Source: a virus
Lineage: Duplodnaviria; Caudoviricetes
Direction: 5' to 3' (one strand)
Length of the DNA: 64,000 bases
IMG/VR virus record: IMGVR_UViG_3300044846_003474
Coordinates: 44,261 to 108,260 of that record
Part shown: positions 8,564 through 38,208 of the stretch, one piece after another
How positions within the stretch are numbered: the stretch's first letter is position 1
Layout of the letters: each line of letters begins with the position of its first letter
Made by a program: the position numbers and the translations under genes
Notes under the pieces: generated by a model
The model's input: the letters and a program-made list of their open reading frames with translations, nothing else
What the model was told of the DNA's origin: nothing
The model's database searches: none

Positions 8564-9349
8564 TTAGTGTTTTTCGTAACCTAATTCCTCAATCATCATC
8601 TTACCAACTTTAATTCCATTGTAAGTGTCCTCTACGACCACATATTCGTTTCTTGTATGGTAGTTGTAGTATCCAATAGATATATTGAAACACGGGATGT
8701 TAAACATAGTTCTAATTGGGTAAATGTCTGTGTAAGGATGTTTGTGATATTTCGTATCAGATGGAAAGTGTTCTGTAATCAATCGTCCACCAACTTCAAA
8801 GAATTTACTATCACGATCAAACATACTTCTTCCCATCAAGAACTCAGAAATCATATTATTCTCAGGAGCGTCAAATTGAATCCCATAACCAACATTTGTG
8901 AAAAACTCAGGATCCGCCTTAAATGAACCTTTACAACCTGTTTCCTCAGATACAAAAAACGCAGCTTTTAAATTAGGTAGTTCATTCAACAATTCCAAAC
9001 AACCGTACACACCACATTTATCGTCACCACCAATACCTGTTGGTTCGTCATTGTCGTTATACGCTTTTAATGATAATTTTACATTGCCCTGAGCGTCAGG
9101 TAACATTTCTTCAAATACATTAATTGTATCAATGTTATGTACCGTATCGGTATGTGCCATCACACAAGGGAAATATGATACGTTTTCATCGGTTTGTTTT
9201 GTTGCATAAATGTTTGACATTTCGTCAACATAAAAGGGAATATTGTTTTTGGTCAACCAATTTGTGATAAATTGAACCATTCTTTCTTCCTGATAAGTTT
9301 TAGTGGGTACAGATAATACCTCCTTCAATAATTCATAATTTCGTTCCAT
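8564..9349 (-). CDS. M28/M20-family zinc peptidase
   Basis: AHTDTVH, GGDDK, EETG, QFD and C-terminal YHT..E metal-binding motifs. Confidence 0.8.
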   Translation of the reverse strand: MERNYELLKEVLSVPTKTYQEERMVQFITNWLTKNNIPFYVDEMSNIYATKQTDENVSYFPCVMAHTDTVHNIDTINVFEEMLPDAQGNVKLSLKAYNDNDEPTGIGGDDKCGVYGCLELLNELPNLKAAFFVSEETGCKGSFKADPEFFTNVGYGIQFDAPENNMISEFLMGRSMFDRDSKFFEVGGRLITEHFPSDTKYHKHPYTDIYPIRTMFNIPCFNISIGYYNYHTRNEYVVVEDTYNGIKVGKMMIEELGYEKH

Positions 9350-9376
9350 AACACAAATATAGACAATTAATTTGAA

Positions 9377-10750
9377 TTATAAAAATTTTTTTCTTACTAT
9401 TCTTCTTTCATTAAATAATTCTGGTTGATTGTCCAATTGATATAAACCATCAACATCCAAAAGTCTTTGATGGTATTTACCGGTCTTATCGTTATGAACG
9501 TTAACTAAAACTTTATTAGTTTCAGGTTGGACCTTTAAAATTAAAAATTGTAGGTTTGGATCCTTTTCTGTATGTCTCCATTCATACCCATATGTTTTTT
9601 CAACATGATCTAACATTTCATTGTAATCATCAATATTAATAAAACGATCATCCTCTTGTACTTTTTCTAACATTGAGTCCAAACTTTTTGAATAATACTC
9701 TTGCATAACATTATCGTCCCAATCATCACAATTTACCTCATACATTAACTCATTCCAATAACCTCTATCTTTCTTATCATAAAGTTTAATTAATTTATTT
9801 AATAACTCACTTAACGTAAATTTATCATTTTCAACATCACTATACCAATGTAATAATACTCCAACAGTTGTTTCAAATCTATATCCTCTATGTATTTCTT
9901 TTATTCCGAATTTATCAAATGGTTTAGCAATCTCACCTAAGATTATATCTTTAACCACATCATCAATACAATCTTGCCATTTGGATGCGTACTCATAAAT
10001 TAAATCATCAACAATTCTTCCAAAGTGTTCACTTAAAATAGCCGCAATACCTCTTTTACTACTAAGTTCAGCTCTATTTCCATAAAATTTGGCAACTTGG
10101 ATAGCTTTACGTTGGTTTTCAGTGTTAAAATGGTATTCAATAAATTCACCCTCTTTCCATCTATCCTCCTCACCATATGTGTCAGTATCACGACCTGAGT
10201 AATTACCAACAAACGTTCTATAAGTATATACATCATCAATAGACTCAACATTAATGGTGTCTAAAAAAACTTCATCATCTTCAAATTTAATAATAACCTT
10301 AGAATTACTTGGGTTCCTTTCATTGAAGTTTATCCCATCAATTATTGGATCGTCACCATTATCATTCCATTTAGGGTCATAACCTTTGGAAACCTCTTTT
10401 AAAAATTCATATGTTTTACCACCTTTAATCAACGGTGATAATATCTTTAATGAAGATAAAAATGCACGTTTTAAATCGTTTACAGTAACAATTTCATTGT
10501 TTTTATTAAGGTCTCTAATAACACTACCATCCTTATCATTAAAAATAGAATATATATTTTTATCCTTTTTACTAATTATAAAATATAGATCACCATTTCT
10601 ATAGTGACTATTCCAATTATCATTACCATAAAAATCAGTTCCAAAATATTGGGCAGATTTTAAATTTAATGTTTTAACAACTTTAACGTTCTCATCATCC
10701 TGTATTATATCAACATCCTCATCGTATGGGTTATATTTTCCCTTTTCCAT
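9377..10750 (-). CDS. Hypothetical protein
   Basis: 457-aa ORF; TATTTAT upstream; C-terminal LFNE followed by a basic tail. Confidence 0.75.
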   Translation of the reverse strand: MEKGKYNPYDEDVDIIQDDENVKVVKTLNLKSAQYFGTDFYGNDNWNSHYRNGDLYFIISKKDKNIYSIFNDKDGSVIRDLNKNNEIVTVNDLKRAFLSSLKILSPLIKGGKTYEFLKEVSKGYDPKWNDNGDDPIIDGINFNERNPSNSKVIIKFEDDEVFLDTINVESIDDVYTYRTFVGNYSGRDTDTYGEEDRWKEGEFIEYHFNTENQRKAIQVAKFYGNRAELSSKRGIAAILSEHFGRIVDDLIYEYASKWQDCIDDVVKDIILGEIAKPFDKFGIKEIHRGYRFETTVGVLLHWYSDVENDKFTLSELLNKLIKLYDKKDRGYWNELMYEVNCDDWDDNVMQEYYSKSLDSMLEKVQEDDRFINIDDYNEMLDHVEKTYGYEWRHTEKDPNLQFLILKVQPETNKVLVNVHNDKTGKYHQRLLDVDGLYQLDNQPELFNERRIVRKKFL

Positions 10751-10771
10751 ATAAAATAAATATCAAAAAAT

Positions 10772-10802
10772 TTTGATTATTGTAGGTTTACACTTATCTT
10801 TG
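10772..10802 (+). promoter_or_regulatory. Bacteroidota sigmaA-type promoter for tmRNA
   Basis: TTTG (10772-10775), 19 nt spacer, TATCTTTG (10795-10802); followed by boxA-like AGTTATTTGACAT. Confidence 0.75.
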
Positions 10803-10833
10803 TATTTATAATATAATAAGTTATTTGACATAT

Positions 10834-11243
10834 GGGGGTGTTTTTGGATTTGACAGGTATTGGCTGAAGACAAAGGGCACGTGGAGACTGAATTAATCTC
10901 CTTAAAAACTGATTCACAAAAACAATCGGCGACGTTTTATCGAAAATGGAAACTCTTGGTTTACTAAGAGAATCTGAAGTTACTGTAGCCTAAGAGGTTT
11001 ACGGAAACGGGGGGTCGGTGGACACATAACCTAGCAACAGAAGTCTTTATGGTGGAATACGATTGAACCATAAATCGAGTCGTCCATTGGTTGTTGATTT
11101 ACGATGGTGAAGAACAAATCAACTTTGTTTTTGGTCAAATTAAAACCAAATATTTTGGGGTATTAGAAAATACCAACCTAAACGTGTAGTCCTTATCTGA
11201 CAGGATATTATGGACCGGAGTTCGAGCCTCCGCACCTCCACCA
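10834..11243 (+). ncRNA. ssrA: tmRNA
   Basis: GGGGGTG/CACCTCC acceptor with G3-U, GGATTTGAC D-loop analogue, GGAGTTCGAGCCTCC T-arm, encoded ACCA; tag ORF 10928-10993 GDVLSKMETLGLLRESEVTVA*. Confidence 0.92.
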
Positions 11244-11248
11244 AATGT

Positions 11249-11276
11249 AAACCTCATCTTCGGATGGGGTTTTTTT
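11249..11276 (+). terminator. tmRNA terminator
   Basis: AACCTCATC-TTCG-GATGGGGTT followed by T-run. Confidence 0.85.
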
Positions 11277-11357
11277 ATGTGTTAATATTATATTTTAGTG
11301 CATAAAAAAAGGGACTAATTGTCCCTGAATGTCTTATATATGTTTTAATAAAAAAAA

Positions 11358-12230
11358 CCTGAGATTACAGTTTTCGTAAGTGTCTTTCGAGTCATTATTG
11401 GTTCTACTCTTATCCACAGGATTTTGTCCTGTAACACTCATTACCGATTGGTTAGACCAATCACTCCTTGACGATACAACTACTCTCTTACTACTCCTGT
11501 CTCCCCAAGATTGCGTCCTGGTTCGGTCTTCGACGACCTAGAGATTTTTCATAAAAATACGGTCAAACTTGCGGTTATCACGTTCCACTGACAGCCAGTG
11601 AATAGGTGGGTAACTTCCGTTATATCGTGACGGACACTTTTGCTTTATAGTTTATAAATGTTACTTCATTAACATTAAAGTTTTTGTGTCGTGGATTGAT
11701 CAAAGTTGTGGTCCGTCTTAAGCTTCATTATCTTTTGAATAACAAAATACCAAACAACTCCGTGAAATGTCCCCATTTCAATATTTCAAGACTACTTCAA
11801 GATTAATCTCTTGGTAGAGATTTATCAAGGACAATGTCAGCACCACCTGTTTGTTGTCATACCTTTCGGTTTTAAGTACCCTATCGTACTGGGATCCGCA
11901 ATAACAACATTGGAAATATTGATTCTTGCATTATCCCTACGAGTTATTCCTATTGGAGTTCCCTCCTCAACAAGATGACCCACATCACCTCGTCATAAAA
12001 TCACTTTCCCTACACCGTTGGCCTCGGTACTAAAGATCTTATGGTATCTCGCCTGTGTACTTGACCTCAATGATCCGAAGATCACTAAGACGCAAACCCG
12101 TTACACTTGGGGGTTCACTTTATCCTACTTTCGTAGTTTATTTTATGGACTATACACGGCCCAATATCTTTATCAGTTTCACTTTTAAACCCAAAGGTTC
12201 TTAACTTAATCCTGAACGGATAATATCTAA
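11358..12230 (-). ncRNA. Large structured ncRNA, GOLLD-like
   Basis: ~870 nt with no ORF, GC-richer than flanks, many hairpins with UUCG/GNRA loops, own promoter, ends GTAATCTCAGG + T-run; boundaries approximate. Confidence 0.65.
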
Positions 12231-12270
12231 AATTTCAAAGAACGTTATCGGACGTTTCCGATTTGTTTTA

Positions 12271-12301
12271 CAAATATAGGACTTTTTTTTAATTTGTCAA
12301 A
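12271..12301 (-). promoter_or_regulatory. Bacteroidota sigmaA-type promoter for the large ncRNA
   Basis: TTTG, 19 nt spacer, TATATTTG on minus strand; boxA-like GTTCTTTGAAAT at 12232-12243. Confidence 0.7.
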
Positions 12302-12318
12302 TACTTTGTGAATTTTTT

Positions 12319-12465
12319 TTAATGTTTTTCTATGTATACTGCTTCCGTACCGTAGTAATACGCTCTTGCTTCAGCAAAAGATGAGTTTGGTGTTGTATAT
12401 TTCTTACCATTATTATCATAATAGTAGAAAGTATAGTTAACCAATACTTGAGTTTCATCACTCAT
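12319..12465 (-). CDS. Small hypothetical protein (48 aa)
   Basis: MSDETQVLVNYTFYYY...IEKH*; TATCTTTG promoter near 12514-12521. Confidence 0.6.
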   Translation of the reverse strand: MSDETQVLVNYTFYYYDNNGKKYTTPNSSFAEARAYYYGTEAVYIEKH

Positions 12466-12558
12466 TTGTGGAGTTTTAAAGGTTAATAAATTAATGAACT
12501 TTTTAATTATACCACAAAGATAGTATATTTATTCCGATAAGACAAATGGGTTTAGTAA

Positions 12559-13425
12559 TTATTTTAATAAATTTTTAATTCGTTGTACGTCTTCTTGTAT
12601 TTTTGACACTTCTTCTTCTTCTTTAAATATACCTCCAAAGTTTTTAAAAAAGTCAAGAAAACCACCTTTTTTGGGATTAGTTTTATCATCATCATTAGTG
12701 GAAGTATCAGTAGTTGTAGTGGTTACATTGTCTTTTTTGTCTTCTTTATCTTCTTTATCTTTTTGATCTTTTTGATCTTTTTGATCTTCTTTATCTTTTT
12801 GATCAACTGATACGTCTACGTTATCATTACCTCCGGGTAATTCGTCTTCAGGTGTGTCCCAATACTTAGTAGCGTATGTCTTACATTTTTTACCTTCAGT
12901 TGCCTGTTTATTTGTGGATACCTCTCCATGACCAAACACATTTGATAGTGAATACCCTAAACTTTTAATTAATAATAATGCCGTTTTACATTGTTTAATT
13001 GTAATATCATCATCGTTTAATCCAATAATTTCAACACCTTCTGAGCTTGAATTATTTATGTGTCCCATACCTGATTTTTGATGGGCAACATGAGCACCCT
13101 TAGATCCTTTTGGTAACGCTTGATATAATTTACCATCTCTATCTATAATCCATTGAATTCCTAAAGTAGTACATTTTGAACTACCCTTGTAATGTCTACA
13201 ATTTAAAATTTTAACAACTTGAGAAGGAGTTCCTTTACCTGCAGTATGATGTATTAAAAAATATTTAGGACTAAATTGTTTTCCTTTGAATTTTGATTCT
13301 CCAGATATATTTGTAATTTGTAAAGAAGACTCATTTAGATATTTAGGTCTATTGGGTACATCAGTGGATGAAAGTTTTTGTTGTAAAACTTTTAAATGTT
13401 CTAATAAAATAAAATCATTTTTCAT
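12559..13425 (-). CDS. N-acetylmuramoyl-L-alanine amidase (Amidase_2-like)
   Basis: LIHHTAG, GAHV, GVEIIG, GHGEV..K motifs; LNES before the catalytic domain; KD-rich repeat linker. Confidence 0.8.
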   Translation of the reverse strand: MKNDFILLEHLKVLQQKLSSTDVPNRPKYLNESSLQITNISGESKFKGKQFSPKYFLIHHTAGKGTPSQVVKILNCRHYKGSSKCTTLGIQWIIDRDGKLYQALPKGSKGAHVAHQKSGMGHINNSSSEGVEIIGLNDDDITIKQCKTALLLIKSLGYSLSNVFGHGEVSTNKQATEGKKCKTYATKYWDTPEDELPGGNDNVDVSVDQKDKEDQKDQKDQKDKEDKEDKKDNVTTTTTDTSTNDDDKTNPKKGGFLDFFKNFGGIFKEEEEVSKIQEDVQRIKNLLK

Positions 13426-13444
13426 AAGTAAGTCATTTTTTATA

Positions 13445-14059
13445 TTATTGTTCTAAGTGTGTCATAAGAACACCACCCAAAGAGGTTGCGTGAACTTGTA
13501 GGTGATTAATAGATTCCATGTCCAATTTCTTCTTACGTTTTGTATAATCCAAACCTAAAGTTCCAATAAACTTATCGTCAATTGTTTTAATTGCAAATAA
13601 ATAACCTGATTTACATCCTGTGTCTTCAGCGATATATTTTAACCCAAAAGTTGCAATAGTTTCGTCTTTATAATCTGAAATTTCAATAATGTCATTACTT
13701 AATAATTCATTTATTGATTTTGAAAATAAATTAACGGGAATATTATGAAAATTACTTTGTACCGATGGTACTCCAGGATGAACCGTTTCATACATTACTG
13801 AGAACTTTGCCATTGATTTACCCGTTGGATAGAAATTACCACCATTGTGGAATTGGGTTATCCAAACACGATCGGCATCAAATTCTTCCTTTATGTGTTC
13901 TATTTTTGTTGTTACCAACTCACTAACACGAAGAGTTTCTCTAACCATATCTGGTTTTTCTTTTTTCTTATCTAATTTACTTTTTATGTAAAGTAAAAGG
14001 ATCGGACCTAAAACACCTGTTATAAACGCAATAATAATTCCTGTCATATTTTCAAACAT
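13445..14059 (-). CDS. Membrane-anchored GAF-like protein, possible holin
   Basis: N-terminal TM helix; ADRVWITQFHNG ... IGTLGLDY; adjacent to amidase. Confidence 0.55.
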   Translation of the reverse strand: MFENMTGIIIAFITGVLGPILLLYIKSKLDKKKEKPDMVRETLRVSELVTTKIEHIKEEFDADRVWITQFHNGGNFYPTGKSMAKFSVMYETVHPGVPSVQSNFHNIPVNLFSKSINELLSNDIIEISDYKDETIATFGLKYIAEDTGCKSGYLFAIKTIDDKFIGTLGLDYTKRKKKLDMESINHLQVHATSLGGVLMTHLEQ

Positions 14060-14110
14060 ATAATTAATAAATACCCAACAATTTAAAAAAATAACCAAGT
14101 ATTTATTATT

Positions 14111-15034
14111 ATGAGAAATTTAATCCATGAATGTCTAATTGAGGAGTTTAGACCTGATCTAATAAAAGAGTGTACAATCGCTGCGGTAAGGTTAGATAAT
14201 GGTGTTGTTTTAGCGAAAAATAGAGACAGAGGATACAAATCAAACGTTGAGGTTATACACGAATTAATAGATGATGTGGAAATTCTTTATTGGAGAGACG
14301 TTGACACCGATTGGAGTGAAGGAATGAACGAATATGGTATTGGGATTGTTAATTCAAGTCTTATGGTTTCTCAGGACGAAAAAGAAGGTAAAGAAGTGGC
14401 AAAAAATAGGAAAGATAAAACCGCAAAAAAAAGACTGTCATACGATGGTAATAAAATTAGAAAAGCGTTAACATATAAAACATTACCTAAAGTAATTAAA
14501 TCAATTGTTGGTTATTCAGGTGAGGATAAGAAAGATGTCGGTTTAAAAGGAGAAACATTTGTTTCAGATTCAAACAACATATATGTTGTTGAGATGACAT
14601 CAAAACATTCACCAATAATAAAAAAATTGAAAAAAGAACAAAAAGTTCTTGTTAGAACAAATCACGGTGTTTACCATAAGGAAGCCGGTTATACAAAAGG
14701 TGAGAAAAAAAAATCATCACATTCAAGGATGAATTTAGCAAAAAAACATTTAAAAGATGTTAAAACACCACAAGAAGTTATTGATAGGTTAAAGGAAAAA
14801 TATAAAGAGGATCCGTTTTTAAATCCATATAGAACCGATAATATGTACCATATGCAAACAACAGGTCAAATTATGATGGATCTTGAAAAAAAAGAAATTG
14901 TAATTAGAATGGATAATGAAATGGGGAACTTAGTTGGGATCAAGAATAAATTACCTAAAGATTATACTCCCAAATTAAAAGTAAAAATTGAGAACGAAAA
15001 AACTCACAATAAAGGTAAAAAATTACCAACATAA
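14111..15034 (+). CDS. Ntn-hydrolase (C45/choloylglycine hydrolase-like)
   Basis: CTIAAV...LAKNRDR, EGMNEYGI, RTNH; nucleophile Cys directly follows LIKE. Confidence 0.7.
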   Translation: MRNLIHECLIEEFRPDLIKECTIAAVRLDNGVVLAKNRDRGYKSNVEVIHELIDDVEILYWRDVDTDWSEGMNEYGIGIVNSSLMVSQDEKEGKEVAKNRKDKTAKKRLSYDGNKIRKALTYKTLPKVIKSIVGYSGEDKKDVGLKGETFVSDSNNIYVVEMTSKHSPIIKKLKKEQKVLVRTNHGVYHKEAGYTKGEKKKSSHSRMNLAKKHLKDVKTPQEVIDRLKEKYKEDPFLNPYRTDNMYHMQTTGQIMMDLEKKEIVIRMDNEMGNLVGIKNKLPKDYTPKLKVKIENEKTHNKGKKLPT

Positions 15035-16189: not shown

Positions 16190-16281
16190 GTAATCAAAAA
16201 AGGATTCGAACCAATACAACCGTTTTTAACTCGGTCTCCCCAATAAGATGGGTAGCGTCTACCAATTCCGCCATTTGATTA
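16190..16281 (-). tRNA. Degenerate Leu-type tRNA-like element, anticodon unassignable
   Basis: TAATCAA/TTGATTA acceptor, TGGCGGAATTGGTAGACGC D-arm, GGTTCGAATCC T-loop; anticodon arm irregular. Confidence 0.5.
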
Positions 16282-16286
16282 TAACA

Positions 16287-16559
16287 TTATTTTAACTCCT
16301 GAACTTGTTCCATAATGTTGGTAACTTCTTCTCGGCTCAAGTACCCAATAACATCATTTGTTACAGGAGTATCATAAGTTAAGTCACCATCTTTACCAAG
16401 AACCGCAATCTCAAACAAACCATTTTTACTACCATATGAATGTGTGTGACATACAACAGATACACCGTATCCATTTTCAAACACCATTTTACACTTCACC
16501 CCAATTTGGTATGGAGAATCTTTAATTTCTTCAAACTCTAAATCTTCAAATTTTTTCAT
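16287..16559 (-). CDS. Conserved hypothetical phage protein
   Basis: FENGYGVSVV...GLFEIAVL...YDTPVTNDVIGYL. Confidence 0.75.
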   Translation of the reverse strand: MKKFEDLEFEEIKDSPYQIGVKCKMVFENGYGVSVVCHTHSYGSKNGLFEIAVLGKDGDLTYDTPVTNDVIGYLSREEVTNIMEQVQELK

Positions 16560-16571
16560 AATACTTATTTT

Positions 16572-17096
16572 TTATTTTACTAAATATCTGTAGTGTGGTC
16601 TTTGGATCTCACCTGATGCGATGATCGTGAATGCTCTTACCGTTTTCTCACCGTCAGTCAATGTGGTGTTGATGTTAACACCGATGTGAGAAGTCTCAAC
16701 AACAAGTTTCTCTACGATCAAACCTTTTTTCTCAATTCGGTTTGCAAGTTTCACGATAGATCCTTCGTAGTGTAACTCAGCTTTTTTCTCTTCAGCCAAC
16801 ATGAATCCCTCAACACCCATTTGTTTAACTTTTGACGCTTTGTCTTTGAAGTTATTGTACTCACGACTTTGTTTAGAGTTGTAAAACCCTCTTGGGAATG
16901 ACTTGAACTCAGAAGGTCTTCCTTCGTTATAAACATCTTGTGTCAATCCAAAAAAGTTACACCATTGAAGGTTGTCCCAACCTGATCTCACCATAATTGC
17001 GTCGAACTGATCTTTCGCCCACTCTTTAGTTTTAGCAATGTACTGAACTTTTAATGTTTCAGTCTCTGTCTTCAAAATGTTTATCAAGTTTTCCAT
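16572..17096 (-). CDS. Hypothetical phage protein
   Basis: 174-aa ORF; TATCTTTG promoter near 17116-17123. Confidence 0.75.
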   Translation of the reverse strand: MENLINILKTETETLKVQYIAKTKEWAKDQFDAIMVRSGWDNLQWCNFFGLTQDVYNEGRPSEFKSFPRGFYNSKQSREYNNFKDKASKVKQMGVEGFMLAEEKKAELHYEGSIVKLANRIEKKGLIVEKLVVETSHIGVNINTTLTDGEKTVRAFTIIASGEIQRPHYRYLVK

Positions 17097-17167
17097 ATCT
17101 CTCGTTGTTTGTTTAACAAAGATATAACTTTTAATTCAATTAGCAATGAAAATTATTCATTATTTTG

Positions 17168-17240
17168 CGGTCCCGACGGGATTCGAACCCGTATCTCGCA
17201 CCGTGACAGGGTGGAATTGTAACCATTCAACCACGGGACC
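17168..17240 (-). tRNA. tRNA-Asp(GTC)
   Basis: Cloverleaf GGTCCCG...CTGTCAC...GGTTCGAATCC...CGGGACC; CCA not encoded. Confidence 0.9.
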
Positions 17241-17320
17241 AAGTTTATCAGTCTTTCCTGATCGTCACCCCTAACCCACAGGTATGAACCCGTATCGTAG
17301 TAAAGCTTGGTTGGCTATAG

Positions 17321-17392
17321 TAGTCCCACCGGGAATCGAACCCGACTTTCCAGGATGAAAACCTGACGACCTAACCGATAGTCGATGGGACC
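17321..17392 (-). tRNA. tRNA-Glu(TTC)
   Basis: GGTCCCA...TTTTCAT...GGTTCGATTCC...TGGGACT. Confidence 0.9.
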
Positions 17393-17464
17393 AAAAATAA
17401 GGGTAGACACGGGCCTAGCTAGCCATCTTTCAGGAAAGTCCCTTACGAATATTCTACCCTTTTG

Positions 17465-17538
17465 TAGTTAATACTGGACTCGAACCAATGACCTATTCCG
17501 TATCAGGGAATCGCTCTAACCAACTGAGCTAATTAACT
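17465..17538 (-). tRNA. tRNA-Ile(GAT)
   Basis: AGTTAAT/ATTAACT acceptor, AGCTCAGTTGGTTAGAGC, CTGATAC loop. Confidence 0.88.
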
Positions 17539-17614
17539 ATATTTTCGTCTTTCCGAAGTGTCAATACGGATATTTTGTGTACAATTCAGGACTCTCGTAT
17601 TGCTTCCTTAGTTG

Positions 17615-17768
17615 TAGTCAGGACAGGAATCGAACCTGTATGAACACTTTGAATTTTACCTACGCACTGTGAGGTAGTGTTCTTCATCATTCGCATTGCC
17701 TTTTCAAAATGCACTTATTCAAGGATGCCGTGCGTGTCACTATGTGTCTACCATTCCACCACCTGACT
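17615..17768 (-). tRNA. tRNA-like RNA with ~100-nt expanded central region
   Basis: Perfect AGTCAGG/CCTGACT acceptor, Leu-type D-arm, ACAGG-TTCGATT-CCTGT T-arm; 154 nt total. Confidence 0.6.
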
Positions 17769-17778
17769 ATTTCTTTTG

Positions 17779-17852
17779 GGTGAATGGTGGGTTACGATCC
17801 CACTACCTTCGGTTCCACAAACCGACACTCTTCCGATTGAGCTACACACACC
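17779..17852 (-). tRNA. tRNA-His(GTG)
   Basis: Encoded G-1 and C73, TCGGT-TTGTGGA-ACCGA anticodon arm. Confidence 0.85.
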
Positions 17853-17958
17853 ATTTATTTGTGATACATAGTTGACACACACTCTCGTTTCACCATCTTG
17901 TGCCAACAGGTTAATGTACTTTACGAGTTTCCCGTTTCTTACTCTCACTTGTCTCCTA

Positions 17959-17966
17959 CAAAGATA
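17959..17966 (-). promoter_or_regulatory. TAnnTTTG promoter for the tRNA cluster
   Basis: TATCTTTG on minus strand upstream of tRNA-His. Confidence 0.6.
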
Positions 17967-18011
17967 TGTAATTACTTTTGATTTGCCAAACAATTTGTAA
18001 AATATTTTTTA

Positions 18012-18509
18012 TTATTTTACTTCAAACGCATGAAGTAATATACGTTTTTTCTTGGTTGAATCCTCGTGGTTACCGATCACCACACCATCTTTGATTGTGA
18101 AGGCGTGACGGCTAACTAACATAAAGAATGTCCCAACAGGGTTTTGTTTTGTAAACGTACCCACAGTCATTTTACGGTTAACTTTTTCACCCTTTACGTT
18201 AACAGTATACTCCAAAGTGTGTCTACTACGGTAATTGTTTAATTTACCAATACATTTAACTTTTTTGTAATTTACTTGATTTCTATTTTCTGCAAGTTTG
18301 GTCATTTTATCTACGGTACCATACGTCCCTTTACGATCTCTACGACCAAAATTTTCTCTAACGTATTTGTGAGCGTAATCGTAAGACACATCAAAACAAG
18401 ATGCAAATGCTCTTACAACACAGTCGTTGGTTTCACGTTTTGCAATTACGGATTCTTCATAACCTTTGATTGCTTTTTCTGTAGTACAATATGGTAGTGT
18501 GTCTTTCAT
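18012..18509 (-). CDS. Hypothetical phage protein
   Basis: ETNDCVVRAFA...HAFTIKDG (Cys/His pair); likely start MKDT. Confidence 0.7.
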   Translation of the reverse strand: MKDTLPYCTTEKAIKGYEESVIAKRETNDCVVRAFASCFDVSYDYAHKYVRENFGRRDRKGTYGTVDKMTKLAENRNQVNYKKVKCIGKLNNYRSRHTLEYTVNVKGEKVNRKMTVGTFTKQNPVGTFFMLVSRHAFTIKDGVVIGNHEDSTKKKRILLHAFEVK

Positions 18510-18709
18510 ACTGTAAAGATACGAAATCTTTTTCAATTGGCAAAATGGTTAATCATTTTGTTATATATAATTTTTCTTCTGATTCCATCATTTCTTTAAT
18601 GTATGCTATAAATTCCTCAGAGTTGATAAACTCATTGTGGATCTCTTCAAATATATCTTCCATATAATTTTATTTAATATAAAAACCCCCATTTTACAGG
18701 GGGTGTTTT

Positions 18710-19429
18710 TTAGTTGTACAACATTTGGATCAACTCTTTGTCAATCTCTGTGTATTCAGTAGTCTCAGTCCACCCTTGAAAGAAGATACTCTCAGGGTAG
18801 TCATAAGAGTCGTTACACAAACCCAATGATTGGGTTAACTCCTCACGTAACAAGTGTTTTTGACCGTCATTAGTACTTGTTCTATTAACATCAACATACA
18901 TTGTGGCTTTTGTTAAATTTTCACCTCCGTATGCAATAAATAAACCTTGATTGTTTTCAGTATATCCAATAGACTCTTTATCGTAGTTGTTATAATCTTG
19001 TTGAGACCCAAAAAGAATGAAAAAATTAGCGTCAGACTCATTATCCACAATATTGATATTGATAGTAGAAATAAGTCCGTTCAACTCACTAACAATATCG
19101 TTTAATTCTGACATCAAATAATCACGTTTTTCACCAACAACATAGATATTAATGTCTTGATTCCACTTTTTTAATGAAGTATTTCCACCATCAAACTCAC
19201 TTCCGTAAGCCACTTTATTGAAGTACTCTTTTGCCTCAGGAGAAAATTCTTTTGTTTGGTCACCACCAGAACCAACCGAATTATCCTCGGCAAGAGATTT
19301 GTTAATTTCTTTAGAAACTTCTTCTTTAAGATCTGAAAATTCATGTCTCATACCTTTGTTGACATCACTGTTAACAAAGAAACAATAGATACTGAAGATT
19401 GCGATTGAAACGACTAATAATTTTTTCAT
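18710..19429 (-). CDS. Exported DUF2927-like (zincin-related) protein
   Basis: Signal/TM N-terminus; LREELTQSLGL.NDS...SIF. Confidence 0.65.
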   Translation of the reverse strand: MKKLLVVSIAIFSIYCFFVNSDVNKGMRHEFSDLKEEVSKEINKSLAEDNSVGSGGDQTKEFSPEAKEYFNKVAYGSEFDGGNTSLKKWNQDINIYVVGEKRDYLMSELNDIVSELNGLISTININIVDNESDANFFILFGSQQDYNNYDKESIGYTENNQGLFIAYGGENLTKATMYVDVNRTSTNDGQKHLLREELTQSLGLCNDSYDYPESIFFQGWTETTEYTEIDKELIQMLYN

Positions 19430-19513
19430 AATTTTTTGGGGGGGTTTTAAATGAGTACTCTACAAAGATACAAAATTAATTGGGTCTGCCAAACATATTT
19501 TAAAAAAAAATAG

Positions 19514-19587
19514 TACACCCGCCAGGATTCAAACCTGGGGCCTAATCATTAGAAGTGATTTGCTCTATTCGGCTGAGCTACGGGTGC
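19514..19587 (-). tRNA. tRNA-Arg(TCT)
   Basis: GCACCCG/CGGGTGT acceptor, AATCA-CTTCTAA-TGATT arm. Confidence 0.88.
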
Positions 19588-22603: not shown

Positions 22604-24031
22604 TTACCTAATGTATCTACGTAAATTCTTTTTGATAATTGAATCTAAGTTTTTGTTGTTGTTTTTATTAATTGTTTCACTAATAACACTTTTAATTGAG
22701 TTGTTTAATGACTCTTCTAATGATCTTGGTGTTTGTGTTACCGGTTCTCTTATACCATAAGGACTTGTTGATCCTTGTAATTGAGATAATTGAGCTTCAA
22801 GGTTTTTTGAGAACATACCTAAACCAACTTTGTTTCGAACACAGGTTCTTACTAATTGTTTAGTTTGTTCCAATTTTTGTGCATATGACGCATCAACTCC
22901 AGCCAAATCTAACGCTTCCGCACAATCTTCATCCGTACCATATTTTTCACAATTTGATAATTGTTGTATTGCCGCTTGACAAGCCGGTTTATTTGCCTTT
23001 TGTTTGTCAAGATCTTTCAATCCTTGTTTTGCTCCACCTCTTCCTAATTCTTTTTGTTGTGCAACTATATCTTTATATGAAACATTTTTAGCCGCCTTTG
23101 CTTGTTCTGGACTCATTTTCCAAATACGTCTTCCTCCATCAGTTTTAATATATTCCATAACTGCCGAATCACAATATGCTTTTCCTTGTCCATCACATAA
23201 TGCTTTTAATGTTGTTTCGCTTCTAATTTCCGCAGTACCTGGTAATGGTCTTGTTCTTGTGAAACCAAGAGTTGATAAGAATGACTCAACCTCTACTGGA
23301 ATATCATAAAGTTTTTCTTGTGTTCCAACATCTGACCATATAAAGAATTTATTTGGTTGTGATTTAAACGGTCCTATTCTTGTCGACAAATTAAATTTAT
23401 CAATGTAATTAACACCATCATCACCAGTACCTGTTGCCAAATCTATTTTCACATAGTTTCTTCCATCTTCAGGTTTTGTTTTGAAAAAACTATATCCAGT
23501 GTCTTGAGTACCTAAATCACTTAACAAAGTGTCAATTTGTTGTTGTTGATCAGCAGTTAAATTATTTCGTTGTGATGCTAAATTTTGAGTTACCTCAAAT
23601 TCATCGCAATACCAACCATGTGCCGCTAAATAATTTAAATTTGGATCGGGACTTGCTTTAACTGCAGTTCTATTAATCGCTAAATAAGCCTTAGGGTTTT
23701 TTGCAAGTGCTACGGGATCCGTAGACGGTCTTTCAAACATATAAAGGTCTCTTCCGTCGGGAGTTAATATTTTCATAAAACTATCTCCAGCTTGAACGCT
23801 AGGGGCAACTTTACTAAAGGCGTAAAGATAATCTTTACCTAACTGGTATATTTTGGGGTCACTAACAGTATATCCTTTCTTTGTCCAACAACCAACATTA
23901 ACAGCTCTTTTTAATGGACTATCAGATACTTCAATAGGTAGTTCACCTTGTTCAGTTATTAAAGGTTTTACGTTACCCAACTCAGACTCAAGTAGGGACA
24001 TCATTCTTTTTATTTCGTTATTAATACTCAT
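22604..24031 (-). CDS. Leader-bearing hypothetical protein
   Basis: MSINNEIKRMMSLLES...LITEQ leader; second LEES...ISE helix at C-terminus. Confidence 0.75.
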   Translation of the reverse strand: MSINNEIKRMMSLLESELGNVKPLITEQGELPIEVSDSPLKRAVNVGCWTKKGYTVSDPKIYQLGKDYLYAFSKVAPSVQAGDSFMKILTPDGRDLYMFERPSTDPVALAKNPKAYLAINRTAVKASPDPNLNYLAAHGWYCDEFEVTQNLASQRNNLTADQQQQIDTLLSDLGTQDTGYSFFKTKPEDGRNYVKIDLATGTGDDGVNYIDKFNLSTRIGPFKSQPNKFFIWSDVGTQEKLYDIPVEVESFLSTLGFTRTRPLPGTAEIRSETTLKALCDGQGKAYCDSAVMEYIKTDGGRRIWKMSPEQAKAAKNVSYKDIVAQQKELGRGGAKQGLKDLDKQKANKPACQAAIQQLSNCEKYGTDEDCAEALDLAGVDASYAQKLEQTKQLVRTCVRNKVGLGMFSKNLEAQLSQLQGSTSPYGIREPVTQTPRSLEESLNNSIKSVISETINKNNNKNLDSIIKKNLRRYIR

Positions 24032-33311: not shown

Positions 33312-35222
33312 ATGAAAAATTTATTTAGATTTATTCTAACTTTACTTTTATTTATCCCATTTATTGGGTTTTCACAAGTACCTGCAGCACCATCTAATGG
33401 TTTATGGGGTATTATCGCATCACAATACCAAGTAGGGACTACTGCTCAGGGTACAACTACCGCTAAAATTACGTTACAAAACACTACACTAACAAAATTT
33501 GCGGGAGTTCAATTCAGAGTATTCTATGATAAGGTAGCTTTTACAAATGCAACTGTATCATTGATAGGATCAACAACAAACTTAGACCTTCAATATATAA
33601 CTAACACAACAAATGGTTATATTACTGTTACTTTAAGTTATACAGGACCAAGTGCGACGTACACAATACCAAATGGTGAGAATTTTTTAATCACATTTAC
33701 TCACGCACCGGCATCCACATTCAATAACTTAGCTTCTATAAGTAATTTAACTTGGACAGGGGTTCAAACTTTCACACCATATGCCGCAAAACAAGATGGT
33801 ATGGATACTACTTTAAGTGTTCATAACTACGGTGGTGTATTTACACCTGTAAACTTTGCATATCACGGAACATTTACAAACGTAACGGGTACGGGAGCAA
33901 AAACCTTAACCTTATCTTTAGAAAAGAAACCATTAGGTGGTAATACTTGGACACAACACTCTATATACACAACAGATAATGATGGTGATTTTGCCATTTC
34001 AGTTCCATTGGATACAACTTTTTGGGATGTTCGTTTATCCGTTCAAGGTGATACTATGGGTGTAGGTAACGTTATCTCATCAACAGATGCTCAATTAATT
34101 AATCAGTGGGTATTGGGTAACGGTACTATGACAGGATTTAACTACTACACTGCAGATGTTAATGGATCGTATAGTACTACAATATCTGATGTATGGGGTG
34201 TGTTTGGTAGAGTTTCGGGTAGATTTACTCAATGGCCTAACAACACTAAAGATGTTAAATTCTTTACATCATCAGAATACACAACAATTAACGGATCACC
34301 AACTAACTACACATCAACAATTGGTGGTGTTACTAACTTTACATTTGATATATTACCGGGTCAACCTGATTCAGTTGTTTATTATGTAATGGTATCGGGT
34401 GATGCAAATGGCACAGGTTATCATATGGCTCGTGTTACTCCTATTGAAGTAGTTGTTGGACCGGCTCCTGGTTTAGAGAACCAAATCTATAATGTTATTG
34501 ACACTAAAGTTGAATACGATTTCCCTACACAATCTATTGAGGTAAACGTACCACACATTTCAGTACAAGCTGGAAATTTGGTTGAACTTCCTGTTAAAGT
34601 TAATACTAACGGGGTGGAGTTAAGTTCATTACAGTTTGGTTTTAAATATGACGACACATTATTAGAATTTAAAGGTATTATTTCTTCGGCAGGTGCTATG
34701 AAATGGATTTCATATGTTAATGCTAACGATAGTGAAATTGATTGGGGTGGATTTGACCCAACAAATAATACAAATACATTAAAAGATGGTGACCAAGTAG
34801 TTACATTACAATTCTTGGCTTTACAACCACAAAATTTATGGGAGGCAAGTCCATTATATACTACAAGAAAATTTGCAGGTAATACTTTATCAAAAGACTT
34901 AACCTTAACTCCCACAAATGGTATTCTTCAAGTGTTAAAAATGGAAGGTGGTGAAATTCTAAATGGTAATAACATGGAAGTTTATCCTAACCCATATCAA
35001 GATGAGGTAACAATTACATTCAAAGTTGAAGAAACTACAAACGCTACGTTATCAATTTATGATATTGTAGGTAGAAAATTAGTTACAATTTTGGATACGC
35101 AAATCCCTAATGGGGTTTATAACTACACTAAAGATTTAGGGCAATTAGTTCCTGGTGTATATGTAGTTAAACTTACTGTAGAAAATGGTGTTTCATCATT
35201 TGAAAGAATAGTAAAACAATAA
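33312..35222 (+). CDS. Secreted cohesin/dockerin-like protein with T9SS type-A C-terminal sorting domain
   Basis: Sec signal ending FSQ; cohesin-like GVQFRVFYD and SLQFGFKYD; dockerin-like ADVNGS...ISD; CTD VYPNP...IYDIVGRK...GVYVVK...RIVK. Confidence 0.8.
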   Translation: MKNLFRFILTLLLFIPFIGFSQVPAAPSNGLWGIIASQYQVGTTAQGTTTAKITLQNTTLTKFAGVQFRVFYDKVAFTNATVSLIGSTTNLDLQYITNTTNGYITVTLSYTGPSATYTIPNGENFLITFTHAPASTFNNLASISNLTWTGVQTFTPYAAKQDGMDTTLSVHNYGGVFTPVNFAYHGTFTNVTGTGAKTLTLSLEKKPLGGNTWTQHSIYTTDNDGDFAISVPLDTTFWDVRLSVQGDTMGVGNVISSTDAQLINQWVLGNGTMTGFNYYTADVNGSYSTTISDVWGVFGRVSGRFTQWPNNTKDVKFFTSSEYTTINGSPTNYTSTIGGVTNFTFDILPGQPDSVVYYVMVSGDANGTGYHMARVTPIEVVVGPAPGLENQIYNVIDTKVEYDFPTQSIEVNVPHISVQAGNLVELPVKVNTNGVELSSLQFGFKYDDTLLEFKGIISSAGAMKWISYVNANDSEIDWGGFDPTNNTNTLKDGDQVVTLQFLALQPQNLWEASPLYTTRKFAGNTLSKDLTLTPTNGILQVLKMEGGEILNGNNMEVYPNPYQDEVTITFKVEETTNATLSIYDIVGRKLVTILDTQIPNGVYNYTKDLGQLVPGVYVVKLTVENGVSSFERIVKQ

Positions 35223-35906: not shown

Positions 35907-36646
35907 TGAAAAAAATATTTTACATATTACCATTGTTATTAATTGGGTGTAAAACTTTACAGGCCCAGCCCCCTCAAAATGGAGGGGGTATTGGTTCTGT
36001 TAAGACTGAACAATATCAAGCTGAATTTGAGAAAAAACAATCAATTAATGATGTTGCAAATTATACTGATACAATACAAGTTCCTATCCAATTATTAAAG
36101 ATTGGTATTAACGAAGAATTGTATGAATTATATCCTGAACTTAAAGATAAAAGAGTAGGTTTAGGTGTGACAAACATTGTAATTGAGTATTTGGAGTACA
36201 CAGGTAGATTTGTATTTACCGAAGAAAAGGAAGACATCAAACAACGAATGATTGCTCAGGACAAAGCGTCTGATAAAGGAATTTCAGTTAATAAAATTGA
36301 TGTAAAAGGAAATGTAATCTTGGCTAAGTATTTTGTATACATAGAAGTTTATGACTTTAGTGTATCGGAGGATGAGGTAGTTAAGGTTAATGGTCAACAA
36401 ACAACAACACAAACAACACGTTTAGGATTACAAATTAAATTTGTAGATGCTGAAACAAGTCAAGTGATCGTAGGTTCAGGATTAGGTGAAGCAAGTACAG
36501 TAAAAACCTCAAATATTTTGGGGGACATCTCTGATGATGTTAAATTCAACCAATCAACTATTGGTATAACAACAAAGAAAGCGTTAGAAACCGCATCTTC
36601 AAGAGTGGTGAGTCGCCTTATCACGAAAGGAGTATTTAAAAATTGA
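35906..36646 (+). CDS. CsgG/HfaB-like outer-membrane lipoprotein
   Basis: LLIGC lipobox; GLGVTNIVIEYL..TGRF...E; LQIKFVDAETSQV. Confidence 0.6.
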   Translation: MKKIFYILPLLLIGCKTLQAQPPQNGGGIGSVKTEQYQAEFEKKQSINDVANYTDTIQVPIQLLKIGINEELYELYPELKDKRVGLGVTNIVIEYLEYTGRFVFTEEKEDIKQRMIAQDKASDKGISVNKIDVKGNVILAKYFVYIEVYDFSVSEDEVVKVNGQQTTTQTTRLGLQIKFVDAETSQVIVGSGLGEASTVKTSNILGDISDDVKFNQSTIGITTKKALETASSRVVSRLITKGVFKN

Positions 36647-38208
36647 GACTAAATGTTATCATATTTATATTGTTCTGTTTGTTTAATTTTTTTAAGTTAA
36701 ACGCACAAACATATAATTATAGTTACTCTGATCCCTGTACGGGAAATATTAAAACCATAGTGGTACCAATAAATGGTAATGTTACAGTAGGATACTATGG
36801 CGAAATTGGGTCATTTAGTCAAAACGATTTTACAAACGGGACTTTTGATGCTTGGACTAATAACATATTTTCACAATATGGGACAAATAGTCCTTGTTCT
36901 GAAATAGTAGGTTTAGGTACGGCAATAAATGTTACTCAAGGAACTGCGTTAAATGTTATCGGAATTCTAAACTCATTATCATCAATATCTGATTTAGCTT
37001 CAGGATCCACTAATATATTAGGAGGATCTGTTAGTTCTTTAAGTAATGGGGGATCTGGTAATAACAACAAAAAAGGGAATAATTCTCAAAATGGAAGTGG
37101 GAATGTCACAACCAATAATACTCAAAATCAAACGAATGGAACAAGTAACTCTACTCAAGGAGGTTCAACCACTTCTGGATCAAATGAAGGAACTACAAAC
37201 GGAGGAAATGGAACCACTAATCAAAATGTTGGAACTCAAAATTCAACACAAGCAGGAGGAACTACAACTGAAGGTGGATCAAATGAAACAGGAACTCAGT
37301 CGTCTGAATCGTCTGTAAATGGTGGTACAGGAGAAACTAATGGAAACGGGGAAACACCAATAAACAATCAAACAACAACTGAAAATGGAAATAATAGTAG
37401 TGGGGGTGGGAATGTCTCTAATAGTGGGGGTGGGAGTGGTGAATCTACTTCAGGAAATAACCAAACGCAAGAAACTCAAACAACGGAAGAAGGGGGAGGA
37501 CAAACAAATATAACAGGGGGAGCAACCACAACAATAAAATCAACACCATCAAGTAAAGAAGGTGGGAAACCAACAATTGTTGCGAATGGTGATTTTGTTG
37601 GTTTTAACTTTAGAAACTCTGATGTTAGAACAGGTTTAAAGTTAACAGGTGGATATACTGCAATGAGATGGGACGGTAAAAGAAGTTCAGGGTGTTTAGT
37701 TGATTATACATCAGCACTTAGAGGACCTAACATAACAGGATTTTACGCATTCATTAAACCTAAATCAATTATAATAGGTTCAGGTACATTGACCGTAGGA
37801 TTTGAGGGTAATAAATCATTATATGGAACAATAGCGGTAGGTCAAATGTTCACATTTAAAAAACCTAAATCACTTAAACTTATATATATGGGTACAGTAT
37901 CTTATGGTCAAGTATATAGAGAATCTTTTTTAGGTACTGCGTTAATTGTGGGAGCAACTTATGATATGAATATAGGAAAACGATTAGATATTAAATTAAT
38001 GAACTTAATGGTTTATGCGCCTTATGTTAGTTATTATAATGATGTTGTATTAAAATCTCCTTATGTAATGTTACCAAGTATTGGTACAAATATTAAAATT
38101 ACAAAAAAGTTTAAATTTAACATAAACGCAGGTGGCGCTTGGGATTTAAAAACAAGTGCTTTAAATTATACAGTAACGTGTGGAGCAAGAATGTTAGTAG
38201 GACAATAA
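36643..38208 (+). CDS. Secreted protein with long G/S/N/T-rich linker and probable C-terminal beta-barrel
   Basis: Signal peptide ending LNAQ; ~170-aa low-complexity stalk; alternating hydrophobic beta strands at C-terminus. Confidence 0.65.
   Translation: MRLNVIIFILFCLFNFFKLNAQTYNYSYSDPCTGNIKTIVVPINGNVTVGYYGEIGSFSQNDFTNGTFDAWTNNIFSQYGTNSPCSEIVGLGTAINVTQGTALNVIGILNSLSSISDLASGSTNILGGSVSSLSNGGSGNNNKKGNNSQNGSGNVTTNNTQNQTNGTSNSTQGGSTTSGSNEGTTNGGNGTTNQNVGTQNSTQAGGTTTEGGSNETGTQSSESSVNGGTGETNGNGETPINNQTTTENGNNSSGGGNVSNSGGGSGESTSGNNQTQETQTTEEGGGQTNITGGATTTIKSTPSSKEGGKPTIVANGDFVGFNFRNSDVRTGLKLTGGYTAMRWDGKRSSGCLVDYTSALRGPNITGFYAFIKPKSIIIGSGTLTVGFEGNKSLYGTIAVGQMFTFKKPKSLKLIYMGTVSYGQVYRESFLGTALIVGATYDMNIGKRLDIKLMNLMVYAPYVSYYNDVVLKSPYVMLPSIGTNIKITKKFKFNINAGGAWDLKTSALNYTVTCGARMLVGQ

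Follow-up and report, generated by a model that had tools for sequence, protein, structure and literature searches.

A stretch of phage DNA free of sizeable reading frames lies between a tmRNA gene and a 48-aa reading frame in the window analysed here (64,000 nt of the 108,260-nt IMG/VR virus record IMGVR_UViG_3300044846_003474; CheckV completeness 37%). It raises the question of what kind of RNA is encoded there and what this RNA could do for the phage. GOLLD RNAs have been known since 2009 and their cage structure since 2025; they are encoded by phages or prophages, often near tRNA genes, and many members exceed 800 nt. The preliminary description of the stretch proposed either a GOLLD variant or a new class of giant RNA in a Bacteroidota phage. 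The features of the locus are collected in Table 1.

Table 1. Features of the GOLLD locus, in the coordinates of the window
Feature	Position	Strand	Basis and remarks
Clp-type ATPase, ClpB/ClpC-like double-AAA, 708 aa	6422-8548		AAA_2 2.7e-67, ClpB_D2-small
M20/M42-like peptidase, 261 aa	8564-9349
457-aa protein, no family	9377-10750
tmRNA promoter motif	10772-10802	+	Copy of TTTG-N18-20-TAnnTTTG
tmRNA	10834-11243	+	RF00023, 105.8 bits, cut-off 47; convergent, 113 nt from the GOLLD 3' end
tmRNA terminator	11249-11272	+	Terminator scan
Terminator-like hairpin and T7	11303-11326	-	Terminator scan; stem of 6 bp (4 GC pairs) followed by TTTTTTT
Conserved GOLLD RNA	11351-12266	-	~915 nt: 5' domain, linker, 3' domain, U-run; column identity
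Conserved 3' domain	11356-11762	-	Full RF02032 match
Adjacent hairpins P21a (11525-11538, UCGA loop) and P21b (11505-11521)	11505-11538	-	Rfam alignment
A/U-rich variable linker (disordered inner loop in the env-38 cage)	11636-11710	-	Conservation and model alignment
7-bp covarying pairing closing the linker	11717-11711 with 11635-11629	-	Scan of all column pairs; absent from the Rfam structure line
5' domain (cap domain in the env-38 structure)	11763-12266	-	Outside the Rfam model; nhmmer and covariation
GOLLD promoter TTTG-N19-TATATTTG (-33/-7 boxes)	12271-12301	-	Exact motif match
48-aa ORF	12319-12465	-	Ends 18 nt before the GOLLD promoter

Family membership and extent of the RNA

The Rfam model of GOLLD (RF02032) matches the minus strand at 11356-11762 with 292 bits (cut-off 150, E 1.8e-82), and the match is untruncated, covering model positions 1-416 of 416. 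RF02032 models the conserved 3' domain only, i.e., 407 of the ~915 nt. The other half of the RNA was compared with further GOLLD loci. A search with the conserved GOLLD 3' motif yielded at least 83 viral contigs; a further locus, taken from a 634,780-nt phage record, brings the comparison loci to 84. With the 5' half of the window RNA (12270-11763) as the nhmmer query, matches were obtained in 55 of the 84 loci listed (E 2.6e-139 to 6.8e-11); the other 29 gave no nhmmer match and represent other 5' types.

Judged by these matches, the RNA is almost certainly a member of the GOLLD family. No evidence to the contrary was found, and it is very unlikely that a full-length Rfam match of 292 bits is an artefact. 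A new giant-RNA class that has only its 3' module in common with GOLLD could be argued for from the limited span of the Rfam model and from the named phage collection, where blastn gave a single partial match (LR745206.1, 24% of the query), so that this collection was of little use here as a source of relatives. Such a class is nevertheless hardly credible, since the whole 5' half is homologous to its counterparts in those 55 loci, and the homologous set includes GOLLDs that start after tRNA-Met, like the solved env-38. The GOLLD call of the preliminary description is thereby confirmed, at the cost of some novelty, and its new class is excluded by the GOLLD match together with the shared 5' domain. 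Equally negligible is any other element (a group I or II intron, RNase P RNA, ROOL or a decayed protein gene), for which size, absence of reading frames and rich structure speak and nothing further: the ROOL, RNase P and intron models have no match at E<=10 in the Rfam scan of 11200-12400 and none at the gathering score in the whole window, substitutions preserve base pairs and not codons, and the longest ORF has 56 aa. The RNA is thus an ordinary GOLLD and not a new kind of RNA, and the features of its lineage described below leave its kind unchanged.

The extent of the RNA is delimited by conservation. Column identity in comparison with 35 relatives defines a conserved block with sharp edges at 12310-11351: identity starts rising at ~12310, amounts to 0.4-0.95 inside the block and is 0.18 just past 11351. 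The least conserved internal stretches are a variable insert (~12230-12170) and the linker (11690-11651). Promoter spacing would place the start site at ~12266. The length of ~870 nt proposed earlier has to be corrected to ~915 nt (about 12266 to 11351), and position 12301, previously taken as the start, belongs to the promoter. Other traits of the stretch were described correctly. It is free of reading frames, with no ORF longer than 56 aa lying wholly within 11258-12318 on either strand; it is enriched in GC (0.36-0.40 over 11300-12200 compared with 0.24-0.28 in the flanks); and it ends in a T-run, seen as A8 on the plus strand at 11350-11357. The terminator-like hairpin is located 25 nt past the conserved 3' end, and a similar hairpin with a U-run is found in most relatives at a variable distance from the RNA. 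This hairpin is probably the end of the primary transcript.

Removal of 10 truncated loci and 10 exact duplicates left at least 36 distinct full-length sequences, window included. Within this set, identity to the window spans 0.95-0.59 in the 5' domain and 0.98-0.55 in the 3' domain, with a median of 0.69 for both; therefore, the 5' domain does not vary more than the 3' domain within the lineage, and the known 5' variability of GOLLD is variability between lineages. Relatives with the same GOLLD type are found on contigs of 262,603, 281,269, 318,164 and 322,477 nt (among the matches listed) and on the 634,780-nt record, and these sizes indicate a lineage of very large phages. Taken together, the segment 12266-11351 of the minus strand is very probably a full-length GOLLD gene of a large freshwater phage, with a predicted cage of the env-38 type. 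A well-sampled GOLLD lineage is thereby defined, comprising at least 36 distinct sequences, some of them on phage contigs of 260-630 kb.

Structure, promoter and occurrence in RNA libraries

The consensus structure of 12270-11700, obtained with RNAalifold from the 36-sequence alignment, comprises 130 pairs in 24 helices. Compensatory changes are frequent: in 98 of the 130 pairs, at least one sequence has both sides changed and the pair kept, as compared with 70.2 such pairs in shuffled alignments and 30-51 when the structure was slid along the columns. Paired cells make up 97.3%, compared with 78.4% after shuffling (reached in 0 of 500 shuffles) and 37-43% after sliding by 1-3 columns. The covariation score is 0.616 in the observed alignment, 0.236 in the 500 shuffled ones and at most 0.118 upon sliding by 1-3 columns. 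The 5'-domain structure was predicted from the same alignment that was used in the test, which favours it to some degree, and the margin is still large. Covariation among homologs, the absence of which would have spoken against the preliminary description, is therefore present, and the 5' domain has a structure that is conserved and covarying. The 36-sequence alignment could be useful for modelling the 5' cap domain.

Folding of the single sequence is in line with this result: the minus strand folds with -248 kcal/mol (z -2.94; none of 20 shuffles is as good), and the plus strand with -202 kcal/mol (z -2.06). The strongest evidence is provided by the Rfam score and covariation, which rank above the single-sequence fold. 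All six hairpins listed in the preliminary description are found in the sequence at the places given. Of these, TGATC-TTCG-GATCA caps a conserved helix as its variable tip, and the other five are within helices backed by covariation or the Rfam model.

The linker, with an identity of 0.52-0.56 and gaps at 11690-11651, is the least conserved stretch of the 3' domain. It aligns to unpaired positions ~63-128 of the RF02032 model, and no tRNA embedded in 11636-11710 was detected by ARAGORN. The pairing that closes the linker consists of seven consecutive pairs, each at least 92% canonical in the 36 sequences, four of which occur as three or more pair types. By its sequence, this pairing may be intramolecular or intermolecular alike. 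The scan that revealed it, performed over all column pairs, also returns the 3'-domain helices of Rfam. Other long-range pairings, e.g., that of RNA positions 317-321 with 709-713, show little covariation and were treated as chance.

The promoter proposed earlier is present at 12271-12301 on the minus strand, and the site scores 11 of 12 as a sigma-70-like TTGACA-16-TATATT element. Among the loci listed, the exact motif TTTG-N18-20-TAnnTTTG precedes GOLLD in 20 of the 36 sequences, and a further 8 of the 36 have TTG at -33 and the exact -7 box. Three divergent loci (L010, L041 and L002) are devoid of the promoter; in these, GOLLD begins directly after tRNA-Met. Ten copies of the motif occur in the window, a number reached in none of 100 shuffles (2.85 +/- 1.57 expected).

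We take this motif to be the Bacteroidota promoter consensus. The preliminary attribution to a Bacteroidota phage holds for the phage, as the source is a virus record of IMG/VR; a Bacteroidota host is indicated only indirectly, through the enrichment of the promoter motif. When 185,579 bacterial and archaeal species, each represented by a single genome, were scanned for the 5'-domain motif, one match was obtained (L086), on a 501-nt contig of a Methylocystis MAG, and this lone contig gives no information on the host. The scan hints that the GOLLD lineage of this phage is not prophage-borne.

The RNA was also sought in public sequencing runs. At least half of its sampled words are contained in 20 runs from 20 studies, of which 14 are probably DNA runs and six are lake or freshwater metatranscriptomes. 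The latter (six runs, six studies) contain 72-80% of the sampled words of GOLLD. Four of these six RNA runs were mapped on 9300-14200, and contigs were obtained on GOLLD in all four and on the tmRNA in three. Two of them (X16 and X17) cover 11359-12140 without a break, with contigs that each have 0-6 differences. The sequence of GOLLD is thus present in lake RNA libraries, whose contigs reveal neither strand nor ends, level or timing. The flanking protein genes have no contigs or a few low-depth ones in the four runs, and the bin 12252-12415 has none in three of the four, although missing contig cover proves nothing in either case. A ranking of GOLLD expression above its flanks was dropped for the same reason. 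The 3' end of the RNA was not read from contigs either: three runs stop at 11359, which is not evidence of a 3' end because related strains diverge exactly there and the assembly graph would break at this position anyway.

Neighbouring genes and the convergent tmRNA

The convergent tmRNA expected from the preliminary description was found by Rfam model RF00023 on the plus strand (10834-11243, 105.8 bits); ARAGORN missed it. If translation is taken to resume where the RNA aligns with the consensus resume codon, its tag has 21 residues and ends in ...TVA. The usual ending of bacterial tmRNA tags is ...LAA. Among the loci listed, 16 of the 33 that belong to the lineage have a convergent tmRNA downstream of GOLLD, always in the same orientation and at a distance of 113-2,704 nt; the count combines 9 of 16 and 6 of 15 loci with a homologous 5' domain, L002 (no tmRNA above the cut-off) and the window itself, and several of the tmRNA-negative loci are cut close to GOLLD. 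A tmRNA was found in none of the 15 GOLLD loci of other lineages (among the loci listed).

The protein genes on the far side of the tmRNA recur as well. According to tblastn against the 85 other loci listed, the Clp ATPase and the peptidase are each present in 22 and the 457-aa protein is present in 24, and the Clp ATPase recurs even beside the most divergent GOLLDs (L010, L041 and L002). The 'moraphages' have Clp ATPase and peptidase genes in their core set (PMC12619734), which makes that lineage one to compare with this record. On the other side, the 48-aa ORF occupies the same place in 11 related loci listed, with 43-98% identity (tblastn). The ten largest remaining ORFs of the window (e.g., 33312-35222, 36643-38208 and 22604-24031) gave no PHROG match at E<=1e-5; most proteins of this phage, as judged from their sequences, are unlike those of described phage families.

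Six tRNA genes are located at 16190-19587, 4.4-8.2 kb from GOLLD, and at least one tRNA gene is present in 19 of 35 related loci (among the loci listed). Some genes of this kind are tRNA-like, ~90 nt long, with odd or four-letter anticodons. One is found in the window (16190-16280, minus strand, anticodon 'ctta', 31.2 bits) and others in relatives (L078 2855-2946, L012 2005-2096, L057 5918-6009, L018 1474-1564 and L006 2861-2953); in several relatives, such a gene lies just upstream of GOLLD. Two further structured RNAs were noted at other GOLLD loci, namely a Pistol ribozyme (69.4 bits, L013 837-912), ~360 nt from a GOLLD of another lineage, and a skipping-rope RNA (51.2 bits, L038 4824-4909).

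This arrangement could be taken to mean that GOLLD, the tmRNA, the Clp-type ATPase and the peptidase, with the 457-aa protein, constitute one module of lake phages for ribosome rescue and degradation of tagged proteins, in which the cage would store tmRNA or hold stalled ribosomes. The uniform orientation of the tmRNA, the recurrence of the three protein genes, also near the most divergent GOLLDs in the case of the Clp ATPase, and the unusual end of the tag are in its favour. However, the loci come from related phages, whose flank proteins are 45-99% identical, and therefore common ancestry alone accounts for the synteny. In addition, the tmRNA does not extend to the listed loci of other lineages. 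Neither SmpB nor ClpP was found in the 108-kb record, a negative that carries no information as the record is only 37% complete. Base pairing between the linker and the tmRNA was considered and dropped: 16 cognate pairs analysed with RNAduplex show no excess of complementarity (z -0.29 to +2.2) over 100 shuffles per pair that preserved mononucleotide composition only. A report of GOLLD-tmRNA pairing was not found in the literature searched, where PMC6582537, in the part available, handles host tmRNA separately.

The rescue module is accordingly an improbable reading, and a functional link within the GOLLD-tmRNA-Clp block is possible but unproven. If such a module were real, it would give GOLLD its first concrete partner, and the tail-to-tail arrangement of GOLLD and tmRNA is a concrete lead on GOLLD function, be it tmRNA or translation rescue. 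The preferred reading is still a full-length GOLLD gene with a cage of the env-38 type, in a lineage whose own promoter, conserved 5' domain, pairing with a tmRNA, Clp-ATPase/peptidase block and recurrence in lake RNA libraries are worth recording.

Predicted cage assembly and comparison with known systems

The env-38 GOLLD (833 nt) forms a closed 14-mer of D7 symmetry, in which the 5' domains are caps, the 3' domains are rings and the linker is disordered inside, according to the available part of PMC12286853; the structure is cited as PDB 9MEE in the portion of PMC12990946 at hand. This RNA starts right after tRNA-Met and has a 5' domain of 420 nt (PMC12286853, in part). The L21a kissing loop is described in the same partial source as switching between GC and CG, as a symmetric intermolecular kiss predicts. 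In the accessible text of the review PMC12990946, the 14-mer of env-38 is stated to have P21b, and the GOLLD of Streptococcus agalactiae is a 12-mer of 700 nt lacking P9, P11a-c and P21b.

The window RNA retains both P21 hairpins. Both are inside the P21 multiloop. UCGA at 11530-11533 is part of the loop of P21a, and its central dinucleotide is self-complementary in 36 of 36 sequences (CG in 27, window included, and GC in 9). The names P21a, P21b and L21a were transferred through the Rfam structure line and not from the solved model. An env-38-like cage is proposed because P21a and P21b are both kept, together with the self-complementary loop dinucleotide that would bridge the half-shells. The 5' domain is ~85 nt longer than that of env-38, and therefore the number of subunits could differ.

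The gene would be transcribed from its Bacteroidota-type promoter at 12271-12301, and the transcript would stop either at the U-run (11350-11357) or farther downstream, at the terminator hairpin (11326-11303). The 5' and 3' parts of the RNA would then fold as separate domains connected around the A/U-rich linker, and copies of the RNA would assemble into a closed cage made of RNA only, for which 14 subunits are most likely, as in env-38; such a 14-mer would have an estimated mass of roughly 4 MDa, at ~0.33 kDa per nucleotide. By this analogy, a homo-oligomeric cage is probably formed. As a best guess, the role of the cage during lytic infection would be to hold or shield translation machinery (tRNA, tmRNA or ribosomes); an action on translation components is suggested tentatively, with less than even confidence. 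No function has been established for any GOLLD in the literature searched, i.e., in the available parts of PMC12286853 and PMC12990946.

ROOL is comparable in lifestyle, being a large phage-associated RNA found near tRNA genes and forming RNA-only cages (PMC12286853, in part); it is unrelated to the window RNA in sequence and structure, with no ROOL match at E<=10. The GOLLD of S. agalactiae belongs to the same family and has the same 3' domain core, whereas the window RNA possesses the second P21 hairpin and is longer (~915 nt as compared with 700 nt in the source cited above, available in part). The closest known counterpart in these traits is env-38. The likeness comprises the full-length match of the 3' domain, the large structured 5' domain, the A/U-rich linker that follows the first hairpin of the 3' domain, both P21 hairpins with the self-complementary loop dinucleotide, and the location in a phage near tRNA genes, with some members of the lineage beginning after tRNA-Met; the cage itself is predicted from sequence. 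The window RNA differs from env-38 in having its own Bacteroidota-type promoter instead of co-transcription with a tRNA, a 5' domain of ~500 nt in place of the 420 nt given in the part of the source available, with the variable insert at ~12230-12170, a 5' domain as conserved within the lineage as the 3' domain (median 0.69), and a convergent tmRNA as its partner in the genome.
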